Position numbers and translations under genes: made by a program. A stretch of DNA of 64,000 nucleotides, taken from positions 1-64,000 of the forward strand of contig JANRKO010000019.1 in the NCBI GenBank assembly GCA_033763455.1. Direction: 5' to 3'. The notes below the pieces were generated by a model that worked only from the letters and a program-made list of their open reading frames with translations, ran no database searches and was not told where the DNA came from. Each line of letters begins with the position of its first letter. Positions within the stretch are counted from its first letter, which is position 1. The stretch is from Polyangiaceae bacterium (GTDB lineage Bacteria > Myxococcota_A > Polyangia > Polyangiales > Polyangiaceae). Below, piece by piece: positions 8,542 to 62,720 of the stretch.

Positions 8542-10839
8542 TCAAGCTTTAACCAACGAAAGCCGAGGTGCCGCGCCGAAGGCCGCAAGATGGCCGCTTT
8601 CCTCGGCCACGTACACATCCGAGCGATCGTCGACCCGCACCAGATCAGGAACCAGATCGGTGGGAACGGTTCCCAGCATTTCTCCTGTTTTGGGCTGCAT
8701 CACGTGTACTTGATGTTGGGGTACGAAGAGAACGCCGCTCCGCAGTACGGGCTGCAACCTCCGGGGCTGATCCGCCTCCACCTGGTGGGAAAAGGCGTGA
8801 GAAAAACGCACTGCACCGGTATTGGCGTCTAGCCCCACCAACATGCCGGTGCTGCTATTGGCTATCAGCGTATCGTCGACAGACGTAAAAGCCGTCGTGA
8901 CTGAGCCCAGCCCAGGATCCTGTTCCCAAGCGGCGCTTCCTGTGTCACGCCGGAACGCCTGGGCACCGGTGCCTCGACGATCTCGGGTGGGAACAATAAC
9001 GGTCGTCGAAGTCAGAAGGGGGAGCTGACCGGCAAGAGGGGACGTATTGATCTCTTCAGTCCAGCGTACGGCACCTGACCAAAGATCGAGGTGGTAGATC
9101 TTTGCGGGCCCCACAGGCCCTCCGCAGATCGCGAAGGCCCCATCGCGATCGAGCGCAATGTCTCCGGTAAAGGGGAGCCTTTCGCGCACCCTCCACACGA
9201 CGTCGCCGGTTGTGACATCAAGGGCAAAAAGCGCAGAATCTCCGCCTGAAACTAGGAGCAGTTTTCCCGCGCGCTTCATGCGAAAGTTTGCCGCCCTCCG
9301 CGACGTGTAACGCCAGCAGAGCTCGCCGCTCTGAAGATCCAGCGCACAAATGGAGCGTTCGCCTTCGGCGACAATCAGAAGTTTCGGCAGCCCAGGGGCG
9401 TGAACAACGGCGCCGCTCGGGGTACCGCTGGAGCGCGGCGCAATGAACGTTCCAAAGCGAACATTGCCGGAGTCGAGTTCGTGGAGGCACACGAGCCCAT
9501 CTTGATGCCAACGCACCACGCCGAGCGGAGTGAGCACGGTTACGCCCGGGCGAGTGGCTGCACGCCACATAATGTCTCCGCTTTGCGAGTCGAGGCTGCA
9601 CAATTCGCGTGCGGCACCGACCACTATGCGATCCCCGTGAAGGAATACCGCTCTTAGATCCAACGTCGGGACCGCTGCCACCCAGCGAGCCATGAAGCGC
9701 ATCCTGCCGGTGGCTGTTCCTTGGGGGGAAGCCTTGGGTGTGGCAGGCAGGCCAAAGGCGCGATAATTCTCTGCATTCGCATTGATCAAGGAGTCGTCTG
9801 CTAAAAACTCGGTGAGCTGCTCTTGGAGCCGCTGTGCCTGATTTTGCAGATTCACCAGCCGAAGGTTCTGCGCTTGGCCGGCGTCGGATGCCTGAAAAGC
9901 ATCGACGAGGCTGAGTGCGAACGCAGTGGCAGTTTGCGCGAGCTCCAGAGGGCTGATCTTGGGGAACGTGAGCGCTCCACTCTTGCTGGGCCCGGATACC
10001 GTAAGCCGGAGCGTGTCTTCAATATGTGTCCGTTGGATCCCCAAACGAAGGGGTGCGCAGTCGACTCGACGAAATAGCGGCCGGTGGGAGCGCATGGCGT
10101 CGAAGACATCCTCCCCGAGCAACAAGAAGCACTCGGCGAACAGAAAGGGATACACGCCTGTGAACTCGTAGTCGCGTCGGTGTGCCGTCACGGTAAGAAC
10201 ACCTCGACACAGAAGCGCGTGAAGATCGGTACGCTCAAGCCGTTCGCCCGACGGTGCGCCTTCTCTAGAACGAGGCTGCGGTGCGCGAACCTCAGTCTTG
10301 AGGGACACCCCGAAGTCCGCATTGTCGCGGGCGACGATTTCAACGGGTACCGTGCGGCGTCGTGCACGTCCGGCGAAAGGGCGGGCTCGTCCCAACGTCC
10401 TTCGTGCACTCAGCAACGCTCCCGTTAGACCACGTGGTGCTTCGGCTATGCGCGCCTCATCAAGCAGCTGCGTGAGCACTTCAGTAAAGGCTGCCAGCGT
10501 TACCCGACGTTCGAACATGCCGACTTCAGGAGAACGCCCGGTGGTGTAACTCGACAGCAGTAGATCCTCGCCGTCCACCTCAAGCCCCAACTCCCAGGGT
10601 TGGTCACTTGCATAAAGACGAATACTGCGGCGAAGCGCGCTGCCGGTGCCAAGCGCCATGACCGCTTGGGAGACTTCAGCAAGTACACCGAAGGCGTCTT
10701 TGTCGGTCTGTTCCATCGCCTGGCTATTGCCCTCAAAGAACCAATCCAAGAGGGATCCAAGCGGGCCCGGTGATTTGACGCGGTCGGAGGGGGACGGTTG
10801 TGGGGCTACAACGTGTAGGGCGGTCATCGGTGAGCCCAT
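8542..10839 (-). CDS. PQQ-like beta-propeller repeat protein
   Basis: Repeated ALDxxxGxxxW motifs (SLDSQSGDIMWR, ALDLQSGELCWR, ALDVTTGDVVWR). Confidence 0.85.
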   Translation of the reverse strand: MGSPMTALHVVAPQPSPSDRVKSPGPLGSLLDWFFEGNSQAMEQTDKDAFGVLAEVSQAVMALGTGSALRRSIRLYASDQPWELGLEVDGEDLLLSSYTTGRSPEVGMFERRVTLAAFTEVLTQLLDEARIAEAPRGLTGALLSARRTLGRARPFAGRARRRTVPVEIVARDNADFGVSLKTEVRAPQPRSREGAPSGERLERTDLHALLCRGVLTVTAHRRDYEFTGVYPFLFAECFLLLGEDVFDAMRSHRPLFRRVDCAPLRLGIQRTHIEDTLRLTVSGPSKSGALTFPKISPLELAQTATAFALSLVDAFQASDAGQAQNLRLVNLQNQAQRLQEQLTEFLADDSLINANAENYRAFGLPATPKASPQGTATGRMRFMARWVAAVPTLDLRAVFLHGDRIVVGAARELCSLDSQSGDIMWRAATRPGVTVLTPLGVVRWHQDGLVCLHELDSGNVRFGTFIAPRSSGTPSGAVVHAPGLPKLLIVAEGERSICALDLQSGELCWRYTSRRAANFRMKRAGKLLLVSGGDSALFALDVTTGDVVWRVRERLPFTGDIALDRDGAFAICGGPVGPAKIYHLDLWSGAVRWTEEINTSPLAGQLPLLTSTTVIVPTRDRRGTGAQAFRRDTGSAAWEQDPGLGSVTTAFTSVDDTLIANSSTGMLVGLDANTGAVRFSHAFSHQVEADQPRRLQPVLRSGVLFVPQHQVHVMQPKTGEMLGTVPTDLVPDLVRVDDRSDVYVAEESGHLAAFGAAPRLSLVKA

Positions 10840-10901
10840 GGTATGTAGGTTCTTCTGAGTGCCCCAGTTTTGAGACAGGATTGCTGAGGATTGGACAACT
10901 G

Positions 10902-12341
10902 ATGCGTATTCGAGTTAGGCGCCAAACGCTCAAAGGGGCCGCCCTCGCGTTGCTCGCAGGTGTTCCAATCAGTCTCGCACTGTTTGGATTTACAGTGGAT
11001 GATGCGCTCATAAGTATTCGAGTGGCGCAGCATCTGGCCACAGGTTCGGGGTATCGCTTCAATAGCGGTGGACCTGTAGTCGATGCGGTAACTCCGCTCG
11101 GGTGGGCTCACGTACTCACCTTGCTTTACAGCGAAGATCCTTGGGAAATGCTGCTTTCGGCGCGCGTGTTCGGCCTGCTCGCTTGGTGGGTGGCGCTGGT
11201 GCTTCTGGGGCGCAGAGTGGCGGGCGTCGGCGAAACGTGGCGGCGCTGGTTGCCTCTTTTGCCCCTTGCTGTGTCCGCACCGTTGGCGGTTTGGAGCAGC
11301 TCCGGCATGGAGACGGGAGTGGTTACGCTTCTGGCGGTACTCGCGCTTAGCGAACAGCGCAGTGCTTTATGGTTTGCGGGGCTTGCGGCGGCGTGGCGCC
11401 CAGAGCTCTTGGGGTGGGCCTTGGTCTTGGGCTTAGGTCGCGGATGGGGTGCTACCGCTGGTTTTAATGAATCGGGCTTTGGGCGCTTTGGGCTCGCACT
11501 GGGCAGAGTGGTCGGCCCTTTCATTGCTGTAGCCTTCGTACGTGTTTTGATATTTGGCCAAGCCGCACCGCTCAGCGCCATCGCTAAACCAACAGACCTG
11601 CAACAAGGATTGTTCTACGCGGCGCATGCCTTCGTCTGGACGGGCTTTCCGGTACTGCTTTTTACCCGCCAGTTGCAGGGCCTCTCTCCAGAACTCCGCG
11701 CGATTGCGGTTGCGGGAGTCTCGCACTTTGGGTTCGTCGGATTGGTAGGAGGCGATTGGATGGCGCTCTACCGTTTGGTGGTGCCAGTGTTGCCGGGCCT
11801 CGTGCTGGTTGCGGCGGCCCTCTTGGACAAAGCCCGTGCGTGGAGTGTCAGCATTCGTTTGGTGTTTGCCTGTGCTCTGAACACGGTATTGTTGGTTCAG
11901 TTGGGTCCAAGTTCCCGTCGCATCGCTGAGCAGCGTGCGTTCCTTTCCGAACAAGCTGAGCCCTTCCTGAATTTTGGCGGAACCGTTGGAACGCTGGATG
12001 TGGGGTGGGTGGGAGCAGCCACGCAGGGGACCGTTTTCGACTTCGCAGGGGTGACCGATCCTGTAGTGGCTCGCCTTTGCTGCGGGCACCACGCCAAGAA
12101 AATCGATCACCACCTGCTGGAAGTGCGAGGCGTGGATACGCTCGTGCTCTTGCTTGCTCCCGGGAAGAATATGCAAACACCCTGGTGGCAAAGTGAGTTC
12201 GCTCGCTTTAGTGAAAACTACGTCGCGCGCCAGCTGAAGGAAGACGTTTGGCTGTCCGTGGCAGAGCTCCCGTTAAAATACACGGATCAAAAATACGTCA
12301 TCTTGCGACGCTCGGTCACGCGGTTCGCGGCACTGCCGTAA
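10902..12341 (+). CDS. Polytopic membrane protein, GT-C glycosyltransferase-like
   Basis: VDDALISIRVAQHLATGSGYRFN, SGMET, RPE, GGDWM motifs; many TM helices. Confidence 0.7.
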   Translation: MRIRVRRQTLKGAALALLAGVPISLALFGFTVDDALISIRVAQHLATGSGYRFNSGGPVVDAVTPLGWAHVLTLLYSEDPWEMLLSARVFGLLAWWVALVLLGRRVAGVGETWRRWLPLLPLAVSAPLAVWSSSGMETGVVTLLAVLALSEQRSALWFAGLAAAWRPELLGWALVLGLGRGWGATAGFNESGFGRFGLALGRVVGPFIAVAFVRVLIFGQAAPLSAIAKPTDLQQGLFYAAHAFVWTGFPVLLFTRQLQGLSPELRAIAVAGVSHFGFVGLVGGDWMALYRLVVPVLPGLVLVAAALLDKARAWSVSIRLVFACALNTVLLVQLGPSSRRIAEQRAFLSEQAEPFLNFGGTVGTLDVGWVGAATQGTVFDFAGVTDPVVARLCCGHHAKKIDHHLLEVRGVDTLVLLLAPGKNMQTPWWQSEFARFSENYVARQLKEDVWLSVAELPLKYTDQKYVILRRSVTRFAALP

Positions 12342-32519: not shown

Positions 32520-33299
32520 ATGGCTCTCCCGCTCACTCTCCTCGAGCAATTCCCGTCCCGCTTGGTTTGGCGCGCTGAAGCGCTGGAGGAGCAACGTTCT
32601 GCGCCCGAAAGCAGTGTATTTCCAACGATCTCGGCCCTGGACGAAGTTCTTCCGGGCGGTGGATTGTTGCGGGGGGGCGTGGTGGAGCTGTCCAGCGCTG
32701 GGGGCGTATCGCTAGGGGCCAGTGTTGCGTTGGCGGCCTGCCGGTCGGCCCAGGGAGAGGGGTACCTTCGCGCTGGAGAGCCCAGCTGGTGTGGGTTCGT
32801 AGATCCGGGAGGCAGCTTGTATGGTCCGGGGGTGGAGCAAGCAGGGGTGTTGCTCCAACGCCTTCTGGTGGTGCGCCCGCCGCTTGCGGCGTTGAGCCGG
32901 GTAGCCGTGCGCATGGCCGTGAGTCGTGTGTTTTCACTCCTGGTTATCGATTTGGCTTCAGTGCCGGGGGCGGAGCTAAATGTTCAGCTTGGGCCGTGGG
33001 CTCGTTGGGTGCGCCAATTGGCGATGGCTGTTGAAGGTTCAGAGAGTAGTGTACTGATGTTAACTGACGCGCGCTCCCATCGGCCATTGCCTTTGCCTGT
33101 TGCTCAACGCATCGAATTGGCTCGTGTGGATCCTAAAAGAGTGCGGGTTTCGGTCAAAAAAGATCGCTCGGGCCGCGTAATGCCTTCACAGGTGATTGAG
33201 CTTAGTCCCAATCCCAATCCCAATCCCAATCCCAATCCCAATCCCAATCCCAATCCCACTGAGCTTTTGTTGAAGGGAGTACGGCGTGCAAGAGCGTAG
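32520..33299 (+). CDS. imuA: ImuA / RecA-like mutasome accessory protein
   Basis: ALDEVLPGGGLLRGGVVEL, VDPGGSLY, RLLVVRP; first gene of the cassette. Confidence 0.85.
   Translation: MALPLTLLEQFPSRLVWRAEALEEQRSAPESSVFPTISALDEVLPGGGLLRGGVVELSSAGGVSLGASVALAACRSAQGEGYLRAGEPSWCGFVDPGGSLYGPGVEQAGVLLQRLLVVRPPLAALSRVAVRMAVSRVFSLLVIDLASVPGAELNVQLGPWARWVRQLAMAVEGSESSVLMLTDARSHRPLPLPVAQRIELARVDPKRVRVSVKKDRSGRVMPSQVIELSPNPNPNPNPNPNPNPNPTELLLKGVRRARA
33207..33254 (+). repeat. (CCCAAT)8 in-frame microsatellite encoding (Pro-Asn)8
   Basis: Eight perfect hexamers followed by CCCACT. Confidence 0.95.
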
Positions 33300-35088
33300 C
33301 TTGTTTGATAGCGTGCAGCTAAAGCCTTCTCCAAGCGCAGAAAGGCGTGTGTTGGCGCTGGTTTTCCCACAGCTCCTTTGCGAATTGATCGACCAACATT
33401 TGCTCCTTCCGGCACTCTCAACTGCGGCAAAGCCCACAATTCCTACTGTTCCTTCGGTGAATGGTCGGCAAAGTAAACCCAGAGCACTTCCATTTGCCGT
33501 GGTCTTGACGGAAAAAGGACAATATTCCCCAGGCGCGCCGATGGAAGATGCTGCTTTGCGCAGCAATTCGCTGCTGCATACGGTGAGTGATGAAGCGCGT
33601 CGTTTGGGCGTTAAGGCCGGGCAACGGATTGTTGAAGCGCAGGCCGTGTTGGCGTCACTTCAAGTGTTTCAAATAACTCATGAAGAAGTGGCGCAAGCGT
33701 TGGGAAAGCTCGCGGAGATCGTGATGGATTTAGGGCCCACCGTTTCAGTGGGCACCCCAGATACGGTGTGGATCGATATTACGGGAGCTAGCCACTTGCG
33801 GGGTGGGGAGGCTGAGCTTTTGACGGAAGTACTCGGACGAGTGCGCGCATTGGGTCATCGAGTGCGCGCTGCCATTGCACACGGTCCCCTGTTAGCCAGA
33901 GCGTTTGCTACATGGAGTGTAGGCAGTGAAACCCCAATTGTTACGCGGCGCGAGGCGAAAGGTAGGATAGGCGTCTTGCCGCTTCTGGCTTTACCGTTGA
34001 ACTCTGAGCAATTGAGCTTTTTTGCGCGGGTGGGGGTAATGAGCGTGGCTCAGCTGCAGGCTCTTCCCAAGGCATCGCTCAGTGCTCGTTTGGGAGAAAG
34101 TGCGGGGCAAATCCTCGCGCTTACAGCGGGAGAAGATCCGGCGCCGCTCGTCGCTTTTCAGCCTCCTCGGGTGCTCGCAGAGCAAGCGGGCTTCGCTGAA
34201 GGTGTGTCGGGCGTGGAACCTCTTCTGTTCGTGCTTCGCGGTTTGGTGGCTCGTTTGAGTGTGCGGCTTATGGGTCGAGGGGAGGCTGCTGAGGAGCTGG
34301 AGCTGTGCTTGCAGCATGACCGCAAGATAGCGGAGTTCCATGGGCGGCCATTAGACACCAGGGTAACTTTCTCGTTGGCCTCACCGCTCTGGAAAGAAGA
34401 GGAGCTGTTGCGCGTGCTTCGGAGTAAAGTTGAGCGGCTAAAATTAACTTCCCCCACCGTTTCTGTTCGATTAGTTGTTTCGGTAATTGTACCCGCGCAA
34501 AGTCGGCAGCTAACGCTCTCGAGTGTGGTAGGTGGGCTTACAGAGCGAGCCTTTGATGAAAGTGAGCTGGCTGTCCTTTTGGCTGAATTAAATGCAGACA
34601 TCGGCAAGGAGCATGTAGGGGTCTTGAGGCTCCTGGATTCGCATCGCCCTGAGGCAAAAAGCGCGCTCTTTCCCGTAGTGATGAGTACGCGCTCCAATCA
34701 GCGTAGGTCTAAGCGGAAAAGCCGCAAAGTGGAAAGGGCCACCGCCAACAACGGGGAACTGCATCAAGCAGCCCCACAGGTTCGTCAAAAGCTCAGAGAG
34801 ACGATGCCAACGGCTGTGGGGCGTATGCCAACACGCCTTCTGCCGAAACCGATCTTGATTGATAGAACATTTAAGGTTGGCGAGGTAATAGGCTTAGGCG
34901 CTAACTTGTATACAATTGAACGAGCCGTGTTCGATCACCGTTTAGAGGGGGTCGCTTGGTGGTCAAAGCTTGCGGTGTCTCGCGATTATGTTCGGCTTTG
35001 GTTGAAGGGCTCCGAAGGTGGAGTGGCGGCCCTCGGCTATGTGAATCGTGATAGTGGTTCGCACTACATTCAGGCCATTTATGATTGA
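33286..35088 (+). CDS. imuB: ImuB, inactive Y-family polymerase
   Basis: ARRLGVKAG, WIDITGASHLRGGE, C-terminal WW...RDY; between imuA and dnaE2. Confidence 0.88.
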   Translation: MQERSLFDSVQLKPSPSAERRVLALVFPQLLCELIDQHLLLPALSTAAKPTIPTVPSVNGRQSKPRALPFAVVLTEKGQYSPGAPMEDAALRSNSLLHTVSDEARRLGVKAGQRIVEAQAVLASLQVFQITHEEVAQALGKLAEIVMDLGPTVSVGTPDTVWIDITGASHLRGGEAELLTEVLGRVRALGHRVRAAIAHGPLLARAFATWSVGSETPIVTRREAKGRIGVLPLLALPLNSEQLSFFARVGVMSVAQLQALPKASLSARLGESAGQILALTAGEDPAPLVAFQPPRVLAEQAGFAEGVSGVEPLLFVLRGLVARLSVRLMGRGEAAEELELCLQHDRKIAEFHGRPLDTRVTFSLASPLWKEEELLRVLRSKVERLKLTSPTVSVRLVVSVIVPAQSRQLTLSSVVGGLTERAFDESELAVLLAELNADIGKEHVGVLRLLDSHRPEAKSALFPVVMSTRSNQRRSKRKSRKVERATANNGELHQAAPQVRQKLRETMPTAVGRMPTRLLPKPILIDRTFKVGEVIGLGANLYTIERAVFDHRLEGVAWWSKLAVSRDYVRLWLKGSEGGVAALGYVNRDSGSHYIQAIYD

Positions 35089-35130
35089 GCATGGGGGTGG
35101 AGAGAATACAGCTCGCTTTGAGTGCTTGAG

Positions 35131-38100
35131 ATGTTTGCGGAGCTGTTAGCGCGATCGTGTTTTTCGTTCTTGCGTGGAGCTTCACATCCGAATGAGCTCG
35201 TTGATAAGGCGAAAGAGTTGGGTCTTTATGCCGTCGCCATTGCGGATCGTGATGGGCTTTATGGTTCGGTGCGAGCGCATACGCGAGCTAAAGAACTCGA
35301 ACAGCGAGTCATCGTGAGTGCGGAGTTGAGCCTGGGTGTGGGTAACGTTGAGTTGCCCGATCCAAAAGGTGCAGCTGAGCCGGCGGTATTAAGTTTTTTG
35401 GTCGAAAATCATCAAGGCTATCAGAACTTGTGTCGGCTGCTCACTCTTGCGCATGAGGAGCGTCCTAAAGGTGAGAGCTTGTTGATGCCTGAATGGCTGG
35501 CAGCTCACGCAGAGGGGCTCCAGGTATTGGTGCCGCTGCCGAGAGTAGTTGGGGATTCGAGTACGTGTTCGGATAAGGTGCTCGGTATCGTTCGCGAGGT
35601 ATTTCGAGAGCGTGCCTTTTTGGCTACCTATCGACATCAAGATGGCCACGGGCGCGAACGCGAGCAGCTAGCCAATGAATGGTCGATACGCTTTGGTTTG
35701 CCGATTTTGGCCACTGCTCGCGCATTTTTTCATGACCGTGAGCAGAAAGAGCTGTTGGATGTATTGTACTGTATCCGGCGCGGAATAACGCTTGATCAGG
35801 CGGGGTCTGAGCTTTTACCGAACCAGGAAGCGGTGTTGCGGTCTGAGGCAGAGATGCAGAAGCTCTTTTACGATCGGCCCGCTTGGGTGGAGCGCACGGG
35901 CGAATTAGCTCAACAGTTGCGGTTTAGCTTAAGTGAGCTCAACTATCGCTTCCCATGTACGCTTTTGCCCGGTGAAACTGCGGATCAGAAGCTACGCCGG
36001 TTGGCTTTTTCGGGGCTTGCAACGCGCTATCCCAAGGGGGTGCCAGGGGGAGTGGGGCAACAGGTGGAGAAGGAGCTCCAACTGATTCAGAAGCTGCAAA
36101 TGGCGAGCTACTTCTTGAGTACTTGGGAAGTGGTGGAAATGGCGCGCCGCCGCCGGATCTTATGCCAGGGCAGGGGAAGCGCAGCCAATAGTGCCGTTTG
36201 CTACGCACTTGGGATAACGGCGGTGGATCCTGCGCGGTCGAATCTCTTGTTCGAACGTTTTATGAGCGAAGAGCGCGCTGAGCCGCCAGATATTGATATT
36301 GATTTTGAGCACGAACGCCGTGAAGAGGTAATTCAGGAGATTTACGAGCAGTACGGGCGCGAGCGTGCGGCCATGGTCTCTGAGGTGATATGTTATCGAG
36401 GGAAGAGCTCGCTGCGAGAGGTAGGCAAAGTGCTGGGGCTTTCCTTGGATCAGGTGGCGCGTTTGAGTAGCACCATTACACATTGGGATACAGCGGATGT
36501 CTCGAAAGATCGCTTAAAGGAGATGGGGTTCGACGTGAGCGACGCGCGTTTGCTGCAGGTTATTCGGCTCGCTCAAAAGCTTGAAGGTATCCCACGACAC
36601 CTTTCAATTCATGTGGGGGGCTTTGTTGTATCGGCGACTCCACTCTACGAGGTGGCTCCCATTGAACCCGGGCGGATGCCTGGGCGCACCGTGATTCCGT
36701 GGGATAAAGATGATCTGGAGGTGCTGGGGTTCTTCAAAATTGACGTCTTGGGTCTAGGTATATTAACGGCAATTCGCAAAGCTTTATCGACTATTCATGC
36801 GGATGGCGGGCTTCGTGAAGAAGCGGAAGTGTTCGACCCGTTGAATGTTATAACAAGGATCCCGGCAGAAGATCCTGTGGTGTACGAGATGCTCTGCCAG
36901 GCGGATACTGTGGGGGTATTTCAAATCGAAAGCCGGGCGCAGATGTCTATGTTGCCGCGGCTGCGTCCGCGAAAATTTTATGATTTGGTGGTGGAAGTTG
37001 CGCTGGTGCGTCCGGGCCCGATTCAAGGCGGAATGGTGCATCCGTATTTGCGGCGCCGAAATGGTGAAGAACCTATTACGGTGCCTCATCCTGAACTCGG
37101 AAGTATTCTCGAACGCACGTTGGGTGTGCCGCTCTTTCAGGAGCAAGTGATGCAGATTTCAATCGTAGGTGCGGGCTATACTGGCGGTGAAGCGGATCAG
37201 TTGCGCCGCGATATGGCTGCTTGGAAAAAGACCGGGCGCTTGCTGCGGCATCGAGAACGTTTGCTTGCAGGGTTTGCCAATAAAGGGATATCGACGGCTT
37301 TTGGGGAGGCGTTGTTCGAACAGATCAAGGGTTTTGGTGACTATGGGTTCCCTGAGTCACACTCAGCATCGTTCGCGCTCTTAGTGTATGCCTCAGCTTG
37401 GCAAAAGGCTCATTATCCGGCGCATTTTGCTTGCGCTTTGATCAATTCGCAACCGATGGGATTCTATTCGCCATCGACCATTTTGCAGGATGCCCAACGC
37501 CATGGCGTGCAAGTGCGTGATGTATGTGTGATGCGAAGTGAGTGGGATTGTAGCCTTGAACTCGAGAATGCGGATGAGTCCTCGCTGACAGCGATGGATT
37601 CGATAGTATCGATTGGGTTGACAGCTTCAAAAGGGGACAAAGATGCCTCTCTCCCCCTGCCGCGTGCGATACGTCTTGGGTTTCGTTTGGTGAAAGGGTT
37701 CGGAGAGGCGGCGGCACAGCGCATCGTGCAAGCACGGAAGGTCAGAGCGTTCGAAAGTTTGAATGATCTTTTGGAACGCGCTGCGCTAAGAAAGGAAGAT
37801 GTTGAGCGTTTGGCAGAAGCGGGCGCACTTCAGCAATTGGTCGCTGAACGCCGGCAAGCCCTTTGGCAATCTCGCACTCCCAAGCTGGAAGGGCTTTTTC
37901 AAGGGCATGTTCTAGGGGAATCAAAGGTTCGGCTTCCGCCCCTGGGTGCCCAGGAAACGCTGTTGCTCGATTACGCGAAAAAGGGGCTTTCTACCGAAGA
38001 TCATCCCATGCGCCACCTGCGTTCAGAGTTGAAGGCACAAGGTGTGGTGGAATCACATCGTTTGGCGCAAATGAAGAAAGGGCAAAAGGTGCAAGTGGCG

Positions 38101-38415
38101 GGTGTAGTAATTACCCGACAACAACCAGGCACGGCCAGTGGTGTCGTCTTTATTACCTTGGAAGATGAATACGGATTCATCAACTTGGTGCTGTGGCGCC
38201 GCATTTTTGAGCGGTTTCATCACGCAGCACGTCACGCATCGCTACTTTGGGTGTATGGCGAAATTGATCGAGAGATACCCAGGAACGATCTCAGTCCTAA
38301 TGCACGGGTGAATTCGGGGGTGAATACACCGGTGATCCATGTCGTTGCCGAGAAGCTGCGTCGCTTGGAGCTGAATCAGGCGAACTTTAGCCGGGTATCA
38401 CGGGATTTTCACTGA
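35131..38415 (+). CDS. dnaE2: Error-prone DNA polymerase DnaE2
   Basis: SCFSFLRGASHP, CQGRGSAANS, PDIDIDFEHERREEV, GFPESH, C-terminal SRDFH. Confidence 0.96.
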   Translation: MFAELLARSCFSFLRGASHPNELVDKAKELGLYAVAIADRDGLYGSVRAHTRAKELEQRVIVSAELSLGVGNVELPDPKGAAEPAVLSFLVENHQGYQNLCRLLTLAHEERPKGESLLMPEWLAAHAEGLQVLVPLPRVVGDSSTCSDKVLGIVREVFRERAFLATYRHQDGHGREREQLANEWSIRFGLPILATARAFFHDREQKELLDVLYCIRRGITLDQAGSELLPNQEAVLRSEAEMQKLFYDRPAWVERTGELAQQLRFSLSELNYRFPCTLLPGETADQKLRRLAFSGLATRYPKGVPGGVGQQVEKELQLIQKLQMASYFLSTWEVVEMARRRRILCQGRGSAANSAVCYALGITAVDPARSNLLFERFMSEERAEPPDIDIDFEHERREEVIQEIYEQYGRERAAMVSEVICYRGKSSLREVGKVLGLSLDQVARLSSTITHWDTADVSKDRLKEMGFDVSDARLLQVIRLAQKLEGIPRHLSIHVGGFVVSATPLYEVAPIEPGRMPGRTVIPWDKDDLEVLGFFKIDVLGLGILTAIRKALSTIHADGGLREEAEVFDPLNVITRIPAEDPVVYEMLCQADTVGVFQIESRAQMSMLPRLRPRKFYDLVVEVALVRPGPIQGGMVHPYLRRRNGEEPITVPHPELGSILERTLGVPLFQEQVMQISIVGAGYTGGEADQLRRDMAAWKKTGRLLRHRERLLAGFANKGISTAFGEALFEQIKGFGDYGFPESHSASFALLVYASAWQKAHYPAHFACALINSQPMGFYSPSTILQDAQRHGVQVRDVCVMRSEWDCSLELENADESSLTAMDSIVSIGLTASKGDKDASLPLPRAIRLGFRLVKGFGEAAAQRIVQARKVRAFESLNDLLERAALRKEDVERLAEAGALQQLVAERRQALWQSRTPKLEGLFQGHVLGESKVRLPPLGAQETLLLDYAKKGLSTEDHPMRHLRSELKAQGVVESHRLAQMKKGQKVQVAGVVITRQQPGTASGVVFITLEDEYGFINLVLWRRIFERFHHAARHASLLWVYGEIDREIPRNDLSPNARVNSGVNTPVIHVVAEKLRRLELNQANFSRVSRDFH

Positions 38416-58703: not shown

Positions 58704-58780
58704 GTCCCCGTCGTCTAGCCGGCCCAGGACACGGCCCTTTCAAGGCTGTAACACGGGTTCAAATCCCGTCGGGGACGCCA
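58704..58780 (+). tRNA. tRNA-Glu(TTC)
   Basis: GTCCCCG acceptor stem, anticodon loop CTTTCAA, GGTTCAAATCC, ends GGGGACGCCA. Confidence 0.95.
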
Positions 58781-58850: not shown

Positions 58851-59342
58851 ATGAGCGACCCCAATCGACGTGCATTTCTGGGCGGCGCGGCCTTATTAGC
58901 CATTCCGGCGCTGGTTGAGAACTGCGGGGAGGGGACGGCTGTTGGCAAGAGCGCGGATGAGCGCGTCGCTGAGCTCATCGCGTTGAGCCGCGACCAGCAC
59001 GGCAAGCCGCACGTGGCGCGGGTGGCATTCCTCACGCCTGAGCGCACCAGCGGGACGCTTCCTGTTTCGGCCGCGGAGGCCGCTGATCTTCGGGCGGTGC
59101 TCGCTTCGGGTGATTTTAAGCTCTTCCAAGAACGGGGCCTACGCTTCGACAACAAGAAGTTCGTGTACATCCGTGAGAGTGAGGAGGGCACCGTGGTGCA
59201 CGCGGTGCGGCGCGGGGAGTTCGTAACGATTCGCAAGGCTCGCAGTGAGCTTGTGGTGGCAACCAGTGTGGACGGGATGGCGCACCCGCGCGCTGTCGAA
59301 GCCGTTTACCAGTACGTGCAACGCTCCGCGGCAATCGCCTGA
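58851..59342 (+). CDS. Profilin-like protein with twin-arginine signal peptide
   Basis: NRRAFLGG plus hydrophobic stretch; EAADL...GLRFDNKKFVYIR...VTIRKARSELVVA...GMAHPRAVEAV follows the profilin pattern; GAAGG RBS. Confidence 0.72.
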   Translation: MSDPNRRAFLGGAALLAIPALVENCGEGTAVGKSADERVAELIALSRDQHGKPHVARVAFLTPERTSGTLPVSAAEAADLRAVLASGDFKLFQERGLRFDNKKFVYIRESEEGTVVHAVRRGEFVTIRKARSELVVATSVDGMAHPRAVEAVYQYVQRSAAIA

Positions 59343-59356
59343 AGTTAGGAATAAGA

Positions 59357-60037
59357 ATGCACAAGCTTCAGCTCACACTGGCCGCACTGCTTTTTTGCGT
59401 ATTCGCCGCTGGCACAGCCAGCGCTGGAAGCTGCGAGCAGGAAGTGGTGGCAGAGTGCGTTGCCAATTCCTGCCCTACCTTTTGCAGGACGCTCGCCGAA
59501 GGCCACGTGGAGGCATGTAAGGTAGGGTGCACGGCACAAGATCGCTGTAAGCTTGCTCTATTTGGCGGCCAAGACCGCCCGGCGCAGGTCGAGCTGGATG
59601 CGCAGAAGCGCGAGCAGCTCATGAGTTGCCTCGCAGAGAACCGCAAGCAACCTGTCGTACCCAAGGAGCTCGGCAAACCGATCCGCACTGAGGCGGATTA
59701 CGTCGCCCCCTCTGAAGCGAAGACGAAAGCCGTCAAGCGCAGCAGCCTTAAGAACACCAAGGCAAGCAAGGCGGCGTGGAAAGCCCGCAAAGCTCGCTCA
59801 TTTGCTGAGCGCAAAGTTGGTTCAAAGCGCAAGGATCCGCTCACCTACGTGCCCCCGGCTGGGCCTGTGAAGTCTCCCCCGAGGCCTCCGCTTCCGAGGT
59901 CAGCACCTCCCGGGCCAATGCCGCCCAAGCCGATGCCACCGAAGCCGATGCCTCCCAAGCCCCGCCCACAGCCAGCGCCGCCGGCGCAAAGCCCGAGCGG
60001 CCAGCAGGCACCGAGTCCGGCGCCCGCGAGCCCCTGA
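59357..60037 (+). CDS. Secreted Cys-rich, basic, proline-rich protein
   Basis: Sec signal (ASA cleavage), 8 Cys, Lys/Arg-rich middle, (PMPPK)x3 Pro-rich tail; AGGA RBS; 14 nt after the profilin-like stop. Confidence 0.8.
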   Translation: MHKLQLTLAALLFCVFAAGTASAGSCEQEVVAECVANSCPTFCRTLAEGHVEACKVGCTAQDRCKLALFGGQDRPAQVELDAQKREQLMSCLAENRKQPVVPKELGKPIRTEADYVAPSEAKTKAVKRSSLKNTKASKAAWKARKARSFAERKVGSKRKDPLTYVPPAGPVKSPPRPPLPRSAPPGPMPPKPMPPKPMPPKPRPQPAPPAQSPSGQQAPSPAPASP

Positions 60038-60076: not shown

Positions 60077-61237
60077 TCAGAAGCACTTGCGGTGCACGAT
60101 CCCCGGGCCTGCCTCGTCGTACTCAGCCTTGGTGATCCACATCTGCTGGAAGGTGCTCAGGCTCGCAAGGATGGAGCCACCGATCCATACCGAATATTTG
60201 CGCTCGGGGGGCGCGATGACTTTGACCTTCATCGTTGGGGGAGCCAGGTTGGTCAATTCCTTTTGCATACGCTCGGCAATCCCAGGGAACATCGTGCTGC
60301 CGCCAGCCAGCACGAGGTTGCTGTATAGATCCGCGCGGATATCGACGTCGCACTTCATGATCGAGTTGTACGTGGTCTCGTGGATCCCCACGGCCTCCAT
60401 GCCCAAAAAGCTGGGTTGGAAGAGCGCTTCGGGGCAACGGAAGCGCTCGTTCCCGATCGTAATAACCTGCCCGTCCGGGAGCTCGTAGCTCTTTTCCAGA
60501 CTGCTTGAACTCGCTGCTGTCTGCATCTCCGCGTCAAAGTCTAGGGCTACGTAGGCGAGCTTCTCCTTGATATCTCGAACGATCTCACGCTCTGCAGTTG
60601 TCGTGAAGGAATAGCCTCGCTCAGTCAGAATCTTCATTAGGTAATCAGTGAGGTCGCGGCCTGCGAGGTCGAGCCGCAGGATCGCGTGGGGTAGGGCGTA
60701 ACCCTCGTAGATGGGCACCGTGTGGGTTATCCCGTCGCCACAGTCGAAAACCAATCCGGTGGTGCGCCCCGAAGCGTAGAGGGCAAGTACGGCCCCCATC
60801 GCCACGTACATGGCGGGCGTATTGAACGTTTCGAACATAATTTGCGTCATCTTCTCACGGTTCGCCTTGGGATTGAGCGGGGGTTCCGTGAGCAACACGG
60901 GGTGTTCTTCTGGCGCCACGCGCAGCTCGTTGTAAAACGCGTGGTGCCAGATCTTCTCCATGTCGTCCCAGTTGGTGACGATGCCGTGTTCGATCGGATA
61001 CTTGAGCGTCAAGATCCCGCGCTTGGCCTGCGCCTCGTCGCCCACGTAAGCGTCTTTCTGGCCCATCCCCACCATCACCCCCTGGTGGCGTGGGCGGCCT
61101 ACGATGCTCGGGAATACCGCCCGCGGCGCGTCGTCGCCAGCGAAGCCGGCCTTAATCATCCCTGAACCGTTGTCGACGACTAGGGCTTGGACTTCGCCCT
61201 CGGTTTGTCCGAGGACTGGGCTGGGAACGAGGGGCAT
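60077..61237 (-). CDS. Eukaryote-type actin
   Basis: [79 protein letters not shown]-terminal IVHRKCF; intronless, 386 aa. Confidence 0.99.
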
Positions 61238-61313: not shown

Positions 61314-62720
61314 CTAACCGCTCGCTTCGCATGACCGCTGGATGGCCGAGTAGTGAGCATGTGCGGCGCGCAACATATGCTCATGCTCCGGGCTGAATGT
61401 ATCGATAATATCGAGGGCCCCCACCGGCCCAGCGCGGAACGCCAGCCAATCAGCCAGCATCCCACGCGCGCGCGCCTCGCCCGATACTGACAGCTGGAGT
61501 TCTTCCCTCCACACATCCGCCACTGATGCGATCCCCAAACGATCGAGCTCATCAGCATCGAGCGCATACCAGCGAGCCCGCTTCAGGGCCTCGCTCACAT
61601 CTCCATGAGCCACGGTCACCTCGATCGCGCGCTCAGGATCCGCGAGCAGCCATACCAACTTATCGCGTCGGAGCGGAGCGTCCTTTGGCAGCGGAAAGGC
61701 CAGCTTGGCTCGCTCACCATCCGGTGGCCCAGGCACAACGAACCCAGCGTAGACCCAGCGCTCCGTTGGCGTACGGCGCCCGTAAAACATCCGAACCGCC
61801 TCGCCCGCAGTGTAGTTCATGCCGGCAACTGCACGCAGAGAGTTGCCCTCTAGGAATGTGCTCTCGGCGCCCAGCGTTTCGTCGTGGTCCAGCAGATCCC
61901 AAAGCGGCACCAGGGCGAGCTCATCGGGTACGGCGGTTTGGCGGGACGAAAGGATCGCCCCTGCCCAAAGCCAACGCTGCAGCGTGAACGCCTCGAGCGG
62001 TAGCGGGCGTTTGGCGGGCTCCGTCAGCCGTAAGCGGTGGTGCGCGATGCAATAAAGCTGCAGCACTCCGGCGAGGAAGCTTCTTCCCATGTTTGCAGCC
62101 ACGAGGTGTGAGCCAGGCGAACGCGGCCAGCTGAGCGCCGTTCCGGCCACTTCTCCGGGCAGCGCTGCAACATAAGGTGCCCACGTGTTGGTAGCCTCGT
62201 TTACGTAGCGGGCCCGGAGCAACCAAAGCATCAAATTGCCTGGCCCGAAAAGCGGTGCTTCTTGGAGCCATGGGCCCAATATCGGATCAGCGAAAACGTC
62301 GCCGTTGCGCAACATCGCACTCAACGGCACCTCAACCAACGTGGCGCCCCTGGCGATTGGCGCTGTCGCCTTAACGCTTGCACCCTTGGGTGTTGCGAGC
62401 AAACGCAGCCCGGGCGCGAACCGAACGCCGTGCAAGGCCGCCCACGCGGCCAGTGCATCTAACGCCTGTTGAGATACCGGGAGCGATGGTGGATCCATGG
62501 GTTGGCACTTTTGCACCAACGCCGAAGCTTCGTGCAAATCAGGGAGTTCGAAGCTCTCCGCGTCCCAGGCCACGGCACGCCGAAGCCCGGCGATGCGCGC
62601 GAGCAGATGGGCAAGATCATCGATCGCCGTTTGCGCCTGCGCCTCGGAAGAGGCTTCGTTGGGGGAGTCGGGTTCCAGGTGATCATCTGAGCTAAGGGCG
62701 GGGAGCGGAACAAGTGGCAA
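61314..62720 (-). CDS. SETD3-like SET-domain methyltransferase (Rubisco-LSMT class)
   Basis: KATAPIARGATLVEVP, WAPYVAALP, FTLQRWLWA...SSRQ, LALVPLWDLLDH, GEAVRMFYG, GFV; TTG start uncertain. Confidence 0.8.
   Translation of the reverse strand: MPLVPLPALSSDDHLEPDSPNEASSEAQAQTAIDDLAHLLARIAGLRRAVAWDAESFELPDLHEASALVQKCQPMDPPSLPVSQQALDALAAWAALHGVRFAPGLRLLATPKGASVKATAPIARGATLVEVPLSAMLRNGDVFADPILGPWLQEAPLFGPGNLMLWLLRARYVNEATNTWAPYVAALPGEVAGTALSWPRSPGSHLVAANMGRSFLAGVLQLYCIAHHRLRLTEPAKRPLPLEAFTLQRWLWAGAILSSRQTAVPDELALVPLWDLLDHDETLGAESTFLEGNSLRAVAGMNYTAGEAVRMFYGRRTPTERWVYAGFVVPGPPDGERAKLAFPLPKDAPLRRDKLVWLLADPERAIEVTVAHGDVSEALKRARWYALDADELDRLGIASVADVWREELQLSVSGEARARGMLADWLAFRAGPVGALDIIDTFSPEHEHMLRAAHAHYSAIQRSCEASG

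Follow-up and report, generated by a model that had tools for sequence, protein, structure and literature searches.

A eukaryote-type actin gene with three linked partners in a Polyangia bacterium, an old cassette that may act outside the cytoplasm

Background

How a near-canonical eukaryotic actin comes to be encoded in a bacterial chromosome, and what it does there, is the question raised by the first 64,000 nucleotides (hereafter the window) of contig JANRKO010000019.1 from Polyangiaceae bacterium GCA_033763455.1, which carry an actin gene at 60077..61237. Eukaryote-type actins in bacteria are, to our knowledge, known from two isolated cases, ActM/PfnM and BARP. The original prediction, made from the sequence of the window, treated the actin by itself; the actin stands, whereas three linked partner genes had been overlooked.

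With moderate confidence we read the locus as a eukaryote-derived actin cassette of a Polyangia lineage, an old transfer that was kept as a working actin system and that probably acts outside the cytoplasm. It appears that this bacterial lineage keeps, and perhaps exports, a small eukaryotic cytoskeleton kit consisting of actin, a SETD3-type enzyme and a profilin-like partner. Actin transfer as such is not new; what is new are the genes that accompany the actin and its implied export.

The actin gene

The actin gene is an intronless open reading frame (ORF) on the minus strand at positions 60077..61237, which starts with ATG, has zero internal stop codons and encodes a protein of 386 amino acids. 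The ATG at 61237 lies one codon past a TGA and is the only in-frame start. The Pfam Actin profile (PF00022) matches residues 15-386 over profile positions 3-410 of 410, with 494.5 bits and an E value of 2.4e-148. A search of the PDB matched 174 distinct sequences, the top match being the major actin of Dictyostelium (3chw, 782.8 bits), to which residues 15-386 align with residues 4-375 without a gap. Counted on this alignment, 36 of the 372 positions differ, i.e. 90.3% identity. The identity to animal and amoebozoan actins is 88-90%, with 88-89% for fish cytoplasmic, Drosophila and amoebozoan Pyxidicula actins. The original prediction had estimated about 90% identity by eye and had set the protein apart from MreB, ParM and FtsA; the count agrees with the former, and the profile match and the gap-free Dictyostelium alignment with the latter.

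Translation and alignment show that the protein retains every signature element, namely the DNGSG phosphate loop, the D-loop, His73 and HRKCF at the C-terminus, which bears out the signature set, intact D-loop included, that had been listed from the letters. The canonical His73 is residue 84 of the window protein, within YPIEHGIV, and residues 66-88 around it agree with the eukaryote-type alignment rows in the stretch printed. An N-terminal extension of 11 residues lies ahead of the conserved actin start. Judged by its sequence, ORF 60077..61237 is a conventional eukaryote-type actin, and the initial observation is confirmed.

It should be added that the last 100 residues also match NCBIfam NF040575, an equivalog of 286 positions named 'syringactin', with 144 bits, which is below its cut-off of 300. 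A literature search did not find the word syringactin in any paper.

Gene organization and distribution of the cassette

The actin gene is one of four linked genes, the others encoding a profilin-like protein, a Cys-rich, secreted-looking protein and a SETD3-like protein. In the window these form two convergent transcription units, with the profilin-like and Cys-rich genes on the plus strand and the actin and SETD3-like genes on the minus strand. The Cys-rich gene starts 14 nt past the profilin-like gene, and 76 nt separate the end of the SETD3-like gene from the actin gene that follows it on the minus strand.

A scan with actin peptides, covering one genome per prokaryotic species, gave 76 loci. 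Among those on long contigs, three metagenome-assembled genomes (MAGs) of Myxococcota hold cassette genes, namely L013 (Kofleriaceae), L045 and L016. The profilin-like, Cys-rich and SETD3-like genes all adjoin the actin gene in L013 and L045 (tblastn/tblastx), and in L016 the profilin-like and Cys-rich genes lie beside it, up to the contig end. At the level of the class, 12 of 401 genomes have actin-like genes, including the window's own genome (hereafter G000). Locus L111 (G284:C1, actin at 9899-11011) belongs to the same family as G000 and lies in an assembly of 8 contigs that is 98% complete. In L016 and L111 the profilin-like, Cys-rich and actin genes are arranged head to tail on one strand as one operon. 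Altogether, actin-linked profilin-like and Cys-rich genes are present in five genomes, three of which also have the SETD3-like gene. Beyond the cassette, the five loci share no flank similarity above 65 bits in tblastn and tblastx comparisons.

SETD3-like methyltransferase and His73

The SETD3-like gene (61314..62720, minus strand) has a TTG start and encodes a protein of 468 amino acids. A phmmer search of the PDB with this protein matched 10 distinct sequences, all of them SETD3, the actin-histidine N-methyltransferase (E 1.8e-15). With the family profile SETD3 scored 92.6 bits (E 2.5e-25) and Rubisco LSMT, the next, 20 bits; no other solved family reached E 0.01. An all-against-all HMMER comparison of 1.84 billion representatives gave 1090 proteins at E <=0.001, and the five at E <=1e-30 all belong to the protein's own family. 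Of the next-best 20 hits, which were scanned for domains, 17 carry SET and/or Rubisco-LSMT-binding domains. SETD3 (PDB 3smt, 6mbj, 6wk1 and others) is the only strong solved relative, and has in common with the window protein a split SET core as well as the FYG tyrosine and the tryptophan of PLWD, both of which the SETD3-like family conserves. The substrate of SETD3, actin His73 with its flanking peptide, is encoded 76 nt downstream of the SETD3-like gene. Compared with SETD3, the identity is low, the match spans approximately 250 residues, NH is changed to DH, the LSMT-type C-terminal domain was not detected in the window protein, and most of the bacterial members are fused to a GNAT acetyltransferase.

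The SETD3-like protein has eight relatives in 5.8 billion proteins, all from metagenomes of Myxococcota or 'Deltaproteobacteria', and seven of these are full length (708-815 amino acids). Five of the seven have C-terminal GNAT Pfam domains and one has a garbled GNAT region, whereas P0128 has an N-terminal extension of approximately 385 amino acids instead of the GNAT domain. The relatives include P0123-P0127 and L045:3742-5955, and in most of them the SETD3-like part is followed by a middle domain and then, C-terminally, by the GNAT acetyltransferase. With its 468 amino acids the window copy is the only bare one, having lost the GNAT half, and we found no orthologue of this half elsewhere in G000. 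Homology of the GNAT half to NAA80 was considered and is not claimed, as the PDB gave generic GNATs only (best E 0.0025). An AlphaFold 2 model of the SETD3-like protein, built from three sequences, is too poor for a judgement of the fold (predicted local distance difference test, pLDDT, 38.7).

SETD3-like genes were found by profile search in G000, G061 and G076, and position 73 of the actin is His in all three. No SETD3-like match was obtained for G284, L070 and L033, where the residue is Arg, for L053, where it is Tyr, or for L016, where the contig ends at the cassette and the residue is His. Of the five lineage actins whose genomes gave no SETD3-like match, four have thus lost His73. The positive controls of this search scored 845 and 832 bits. 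In the tree L045, which has His and the enzyme, is sister to L053, which has Tyr and for which no enzyme was found, and at least one loss of His73 is therefore independent. The L111, L033 and L053 actins, which have Arg or Tyr at position 73 and for which no SETD3-like gene was found, are 66-78% identical to the window actin. We suggest that the SETD3-like enzyme would methylate His73 of the linked actin, like SETD3 does in eukaryotes, and that the fused GNAT domain of its relatives may acetylate actin.

The same N-terminal motif, M-P-L-V-P-x-P-x-L, opens the actin (61223-61237, minus strand) and the SETD3-like protein (62706-62720, minus strand), with different codons in the two genes. Among the ORFs of at least 80 amino acids in G000 (6.56 Mb) these two are the only ones with this motif at the first start codon, and it is absent from the orthologues.

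Profilin-like and Cys-rich proteins

The profilin-like gene (58851..59342, plus strand) encodes 163 amino acids. The Pfam Profilin profile (PF00235) matches residues 66-155 over profile positions 33-118 with 30.4 bits, against a cut-off of 25. Three of the four orthologues scanned pass the same cut-off, and PF00235 is annotated for nine of the ten clusters of the family. A phmmer search of the PDB with the protein did not find any solved profilin.

The N-terminus of the protein, MSDPNRRAFLGGAALLAIPALV, carries a twin-arginine motif (NRRAFLGGAALLAIPALV). RRxFL followed by a hydrophobic stretch is present in all 11 full-length members (window, L013, L016, L045, L111, P0133-P0137 and P0139), the fragment P0138 being left out of this count. 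The NCBIfam model TAT_signal (TIGR01409) is passed by four of the nine members scanned, and the Pfam TAT_signal model scores below its cut-off in the L013 and L045 copies. One of the ten clusters is named by NCBI only as 'twin-arginine translocation signal domain-containing protein'. TatC, of the twin-arginine translocation (Tat) pathway, is encoded in G000 (C47, 221.5 bits).

A complex model of the actin with residues 33-163 of the profilin-like protein gave interface scores (ipSAE) of 0.87, 0.87 and 0.86, compared with 0.02 for the best of three controls. The mark used for such models is reached by 116 of 157 solved complexes and by 2 of 215 mismatched pairs. Contact agreement between the runs was at least 79% and the pLDDT of the partner at least 89. 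The modelled contacts on the actin are residues 177-185, 295-300, 362-366 and 380-386, corresponding to canonical residues 166-174, 284-289, 351-355 and 369-375, that is, the barbed-end groove, the face used by eukaryotic profilin. The model supports, without demonstrating, binding between the two proteins. It should be noted that profilin-actin complexes are already solved, and the score therefore shows likeness and possibly the memory of the model. We suggest that the profilin-like protein may bind monomeric actin at the barbed-end groove.

The Cys-rich gene (59357..60037, plus strand) encodes 226 amino acids. In brief, its product has a hydrophobic signal peptide, as read from the sequence, a helical domain with eight cysteines, a basic stretch with a conserved W-K...F, and a proline-rich tail in which PMPPKP occurs three times; the gene has a triple 15-nt repeat. 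Eight cysteines (C26, C34, C39, C43, C54, C58, C64 and C91) are invariant in an alignment of five orthologues. Scans against Pfam and NCBIfam gave zero family matches, and the ESM Atlas gave no usable hit. The AlphaFold 2 model is helical (pLDDT 60.7), and with its invariant cysteines the protein looks disulfide-bonded.

Site of action

The profilin-like and Cys-rich proteins are export-tagged in every cassette genome. Based on the Tat signal of every profilin-like copy and the Sec signal of its operon partner, we suggest that the system may act in the cell envelope or outside the cell. The actin, which has no signal of its own, could be exported folded and nucleotide-loaded together with its Tat-tagged partner by Tat 'hitchhiking'. 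The Tat pathway exports folded, cofactor-loaded proteins and can carry signal-less partners along, and co-export is for this reason the simplest model. A functional analogy is found in hydrogenases, where the signal is on one of the two subunits, small and large, and the signal-less, cofactor-loaded partner is exported folded with it. Export of the actin itself is what we infer here. Once outside, the actin could serve to build a structure, or it could disturb the actin of eukaryotes that graze on the bacterium or are its prey, and its very high conservation is consistent with continued contact with eukaryotic actin or its partners. In its full form, where a His73-methylated actin is exported folded via Tat on a profilin-derived escort and put to use in the envelope or beyond the cell, perhaps against eukaryotic grazers or prey, the proposal is a tentative one.

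Two other actins of the lineage carry export signals. L070:1613-2857 (plus strand), on a 10.5-kb contig of the unrelated MAG 'bacterium isolate 2_bin.9', encodes an actin that is 55% identical to that of the window and has its own twin-arginine signal, MSHRSRREFLALTAGGLLAAPLLA. In this actin His73 is replaced by Arg and DNGSG by DHSGG, and its genome gave no profilin match. L109 (G263:C3:1150818-1151885, minus strand) is an actin homologue with 43% identity that begins with a classical signal peptide, MRHLATLALLALAVTALPAVASA, which suggests a Sec-exported protein of the actin fold. Its genome is of the same family as G000, consists of 3 contigs and is 97% complete.

A number of observations speak against the proposal of a working, exported actin system. 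For the enzyme, the SET motif 'NH' reads DH in the whole SETD3-like family, and the window copy has Thr in place of the pocket Asn by which SETD3 contacts His73, an Asn that L045 and P0128 do retain. The Rubisco-LSMT-type domain (PF09273) was not detected in the window protein, whereas 13 of the 20 nearest outside relatives have it. The co-variation of His73 and SETD3-like genes comprises eight related sequences, several of them from MAGs of unknown completeness. As regards export, the window copy of the profilin-like protein is below the thresholds of the Pfam and NCBIfam Tat models, the proline-rich tail of the Cys-rich protein is not conserved, and a signal is absent from both the actin and the SETD3-like protein, which makes co-export purely inferential. 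The periplasm is without ATP, and a dynamic periplasmic filament is therefore hard to picture. The window actin joins the other cassette actins in two of our trees and is separated from most of them in the tree that includes giant-virus actins. Finally, conventional actin depends on the chaperonin CCT for folding. G000 encodes three GroELs (C13:9855-11357, C6:375503-377005 and C19:108463-109971), one of them on the actin contig, and we found no thermosome/CCT-type (group II) chaperonin in this genome, which is a difficulty for the folding of this actin. Cofilin and gelsolin gave no match in G000 either, which shows little as the control genomes were equally silent.

The strongest alternative, which we consider plausible but less probable than action outside the cytoplasm, has the same cassette and the same origin but leaves the actin in the cytoplasm, where it would form an internal structure like ActM, while the profilin-like protein with its Tat signal and the Cys-rich protein would have taken on a role in the envelope in which the actin of the bacterium itself no longer takes part. 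The absence of signal peptides from the actin and the SETD3-like protein, the cytoplasmic location of ATP and of the methyl donor, and the separate, convergent transcription units of the two gene pairs in the window are what one would expect of a cytoplasmic actin. In the part of PMC3254629 that describes them, ActM and PfnM make an intracellular shell. On the other hand, the profilin-like gene lies beside the actin gene in five of five cassette genomes, and in L016 and L111 within the same operon; the modelled interface is on the canonical actin-binding face; and the L070 and L109 actins bear export signals of their own.

A further alternative sees the cassette as mainly an anti-eukaryote device. 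The profilin-like and Cys-rich proteins would be exported, either by themselves or together with the actin, to bind or poison actin in grazing amoebae or eukaryotic prey, and the near-canonical sequence would be retained for mixing with eukaryotic actin. The 90% identity to eukaryotic actins despite saturated synonymous sites against the bacterial orthologues would be accounted for in this way, as would the two cassette components with export signals. The conservation is also above what polymerization needs, ActM being 65% identical to actin as given in the part of PMC3254629 on ActM, and the myxobacterium Haliangium degrades yeast cells according to the corresponding passage of PMC3035250. 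Mimicry is, however, a poor fit to the other cassette actins, which have drifted (67-77%) and lost His73, and no route across the outer membrane was identified. We regard a mainly anti-eukaryote role as unlikely.

Age, selection and genomic setting

G000 is an assembly of 6.56 Mb in 92 contigs that is 93.7% complete with 2.84% estimated contamination. Among public sequencing runs no RNA run was listed for it; the DNA runs are one from sediment (share 0.71, possibly the sample of origin), one from soil (0.24) and three with small shares. The window is the first 64 kb of its 243,083-bp contig C19 (GC 0.59), and the actin gene lies 60 kb inside. The genes around it encode SMC, PheA, Cmk, ribosomal protein S1, PNPase, RecQ, an ImuB/DnaE2 cassette, FHIPEP, PP2C and Ddl, and the GC content is even across the window. 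The GC content at third codon positions (GC3) of the actin gene is 0.77, compared with a genome mean of 0.66, and by its use of host-typical codons the gene ranks at the 96th percentile among 2109 long ORFs in G000. A location in bacterial DNA with host-like codons, as had been predicted, is thereby upheld, also by the comparison with host genes that had been proposed as a check. A nucleotide match of nearly 100% to a eukaryotic gene, which had been named as the sign of contamination, was not seen among the actins compared; the highest identity is 79.9%, to a bacterial orthologue.

The ratio of nonsynonymous to synonymous substitution rates (dN/dS, ω) of the actin against five bacterial orthologues is 0.09-0.20 at a dS of 1.0-1.35, in line with the purifying selection that had been predicted. 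The partner genes have a dS of 1.4-2.5 and an ω of 0.22-0.31 against the other cassettes, and all four genes are at synonymous saturation (dS >=1.0). We found no actin in 60 of 60 sampled closer relatives, three congeners included, and no actin match in 72,556 plasmid records or 50,697 phage records. Based on the saturated dS across cassettes and the shared genes in unrelated contexts, the cassette is old; the sequences describe a unit that is selected as such and is moving or rearranging within Polyangia. As it is common to other Polyangia, the transfer predates G000. That a newer eukaryotic copy has recently taken the place of the original actin gene was considered in view of the short branch and unstable tree position of the window actin, and is unsupported because dS of the actin is saturated like that of its partner genes.

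It is highly improbable that the actin gene was picked up recently as a passenger without function and is now decaying. Its absence from the sampled relatives and its position in a variable region beside a tRNA gene would suit such a passenger, but low dN/dS, saturated dS, codon adaptation at the 96th percentile, four intact frames and the retention of every actin signature motif do not. Eukaryotic contamination or a chimeric contig, for which the 92-contig assembly with its estimated contamination and the short contaminant actin contigs in many isolate assemblies could be cited, has a negligible probability and is excluded as the source, since bacterial genes flank both sides of an intronless gene with host codon usage and uniform GC, deep inside a 243-kb contig, the cassette recurs in four other bacterial assemblies (one of them the 98% complete assembly of 8 contigs), and the nucleotide identity to three eukaryote-type actins on short contigs (L004, L011 and L012) is at most 76.3%.

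Origin of the actin

The presence of a eukaryote-type actin in bacterial DNA agrees with the horizontal acquisition that had been predicted, and the direction of transfer looks like eukaryote to bacterium. The amoebozoan donor that was part of the prediction is neither supported nor rejected. The residues cited as amoebozoan-like (VQALV, HETTYN and TMFPG) turned out to be majority states in a 30-sequence alignment, and VQALV is also found in a flatworm actin. The window actin lies outside the only clade with a named amoebozoan (Pyxidicula), and in none of our trees is it sister to amoebozoans. In approximately unbiased (AU) tests, sisterhood with the clade holding Pyxidicula was not rejected (p-AU 0.27), nor was monophyly of the eight actins of the cassette lineage (p-AU 0.51). 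With giant-virus actins added, the short-branched window actin shifts to a position beside amoebozoan and animal actins, and its place in the tree is therefore unstable. It should be noted that the eukaryotic sampling of these trees is thin and partly unnamed, and that BARP and Asgard actins lie outside them.

Giant-virus actins ('viractins', 14 loci from giant-virus MAGs, GVMAGs) are, like the window actin, eukaryote-type actins found outside eukaryotes. They are 66-71% identical to it and form a clade of their own with actins of the SAR (stramenopile, alveolate, rhizarian) type, and are not its nearest relatives. In all three trees actins of cyanobacteria, gammaproteobacteria, Aureispira and one Nannocystis form a group nested in animal-type actins, with ActM inside. 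The cassette actins lie apart from this group, and bacteria must therefore have acquired actin at least twice.

Comparison with known systems

As given in the part of PMC3254629 on this system, the Microcystis aeruginosa PCC 7806 proteins ActM and PfnM have identities of 65% to actin and 84% to eukaryotic profilin, respectively. The same part of the paper describes a eukaryote-type actin gene beside a profilin gene in a variable, island-like region, ascribed to eukaryote-to-bacterium transfer, which is much like the situation here. In contrast to ActM, the window actin is 90% identical to eukaryotic actin, and unlike PfnM, the profilin-like protein has a Tat signal and only just clears the Pfam cut-off (30 bits). 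As far as that description goes, ActM is without a SETD3-like partner and without a secreted Cys-rich one, and both ActM and PfnM act inside the cell. The ActM-type genes in our sequence set (L046 and L048) belong in all three trees to the separate, animal-nested bacterial group, and a common origin with the window actin was not found.

BARP of Haliangium ochraceum is a eukaryotic-type actin-family protein encoded in a myxobacterium (Wu et al. 2009, as cited in passages of PMC3035250 and PMC6906331). According to these passages its host belongs to a Nannocystineae/Polyangia lineage, as here. No profilin, SETD3 or export signal is mentioned in them; the genomic context of barP (Wu et al. 2009) lies outside the comparison.

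What goes beyond both cases is the conservation of approximately 90%, the dedicated SETD3-type enzyme and a profilin derivative that is always export-tagged. Literature searches (subscription papers not covered) gave no report of a SETD3-type enzyme encoded beside an actin in a bacterium or of a bacterial actin linked to a Tat-tagged profilin, and none of an actin or a profilin as Tat cargo. If the proposal is true, the cassette would be the first system known to export actin and would contain the first SETD3-type modifier of actin from a bacterium, and it would raise the question of how a conventional actin folds without CCT. The small cassette offers a handle on this folding, on the role of His73 methylation and on the carriage of actin by Tat. 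Myxococcota are often invoked in scenarios of eukaryogenesis, and the cassette is a concrete, datable case of eukaryotic cytoskeleton genes settling in this phylum.

Flanking region and further actin loci

On its left the genus-variable region in which the cassette lies is bounded by a tRNA-Glu gene (anticodon TTC; 58704..58780, plus strand; ARAGORN); an ordinary DUF1592/DUF1595 gene lies on the other side of the cassette. The left flank, PP2C-Ddl-tRNA, is kept in three of three congeners with 74-76% DNA identity. After the tRNA-Glu gene the congeners G001 and G003 have different DNA, and synteny resumes at approximately 66.3 and 74.5 kb of C19; the contig of the third congener, G002, ends at the tRNA-Glu gene. 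No repeat of the tRNA-Glu gene of 12 nt or more was found downstream. A sigma-70-like promoter was not found, and terminator-like sites are no more numerous than expected from shuffled sequence. A link to type III secretion was considered and dropped because the FHIPEP gene, 4 kb away, stands alone amid housekeeping genes; of this side, the comparison with the congeners covered the PP2C-Ddl-tRNA flank and not the FHIPEP gene.

The actin scan gave several further kinds of loci. Actins on long contigs that are 63-82% identical to that of the window make up a second bacterial set, the one nested in animal-type actins; its members come from cyanobacteria (L014, L015, L021, L028 and L051, including a complete Microcoleus chromosome), gammaproteobacterial symbionts (L022 and L068) and Aureispira (L043). 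We found no Pfam profilin in five genomes of the Microcoleus/Oscillatoria type. Contigs of 0.4-2 kb from many bacterial and archaeal isolate assemblies (L004-L011, L017, L018, L030, L031, L034-L042 and similar) encode animal-type actins with MCDDD or MCDEE at the N-terminus and look like eukaryotic contamination in public genomes; several of those whose names state a coverage have low values. L019, an 8.8-kb contig of a Rickettsiales MAG, carries an AT-rich actin gene (GC3 0.17) whose product is 87-88% identical to the window actin and lies near it in the trees. Its MAG gave two strong profilin hits (177 and 83 bits), and this actin is probably protist DNA in the bin.

Elsewhere in the window, positions 32520-38415 (plus strand) encode an ordinary mutagenesis cassette, consisting of a small ORF, a Y-family polymerase (ImuB-like, Pfam IMS) and an error-prone Pol III alpha subunit of the DnaE2 type.

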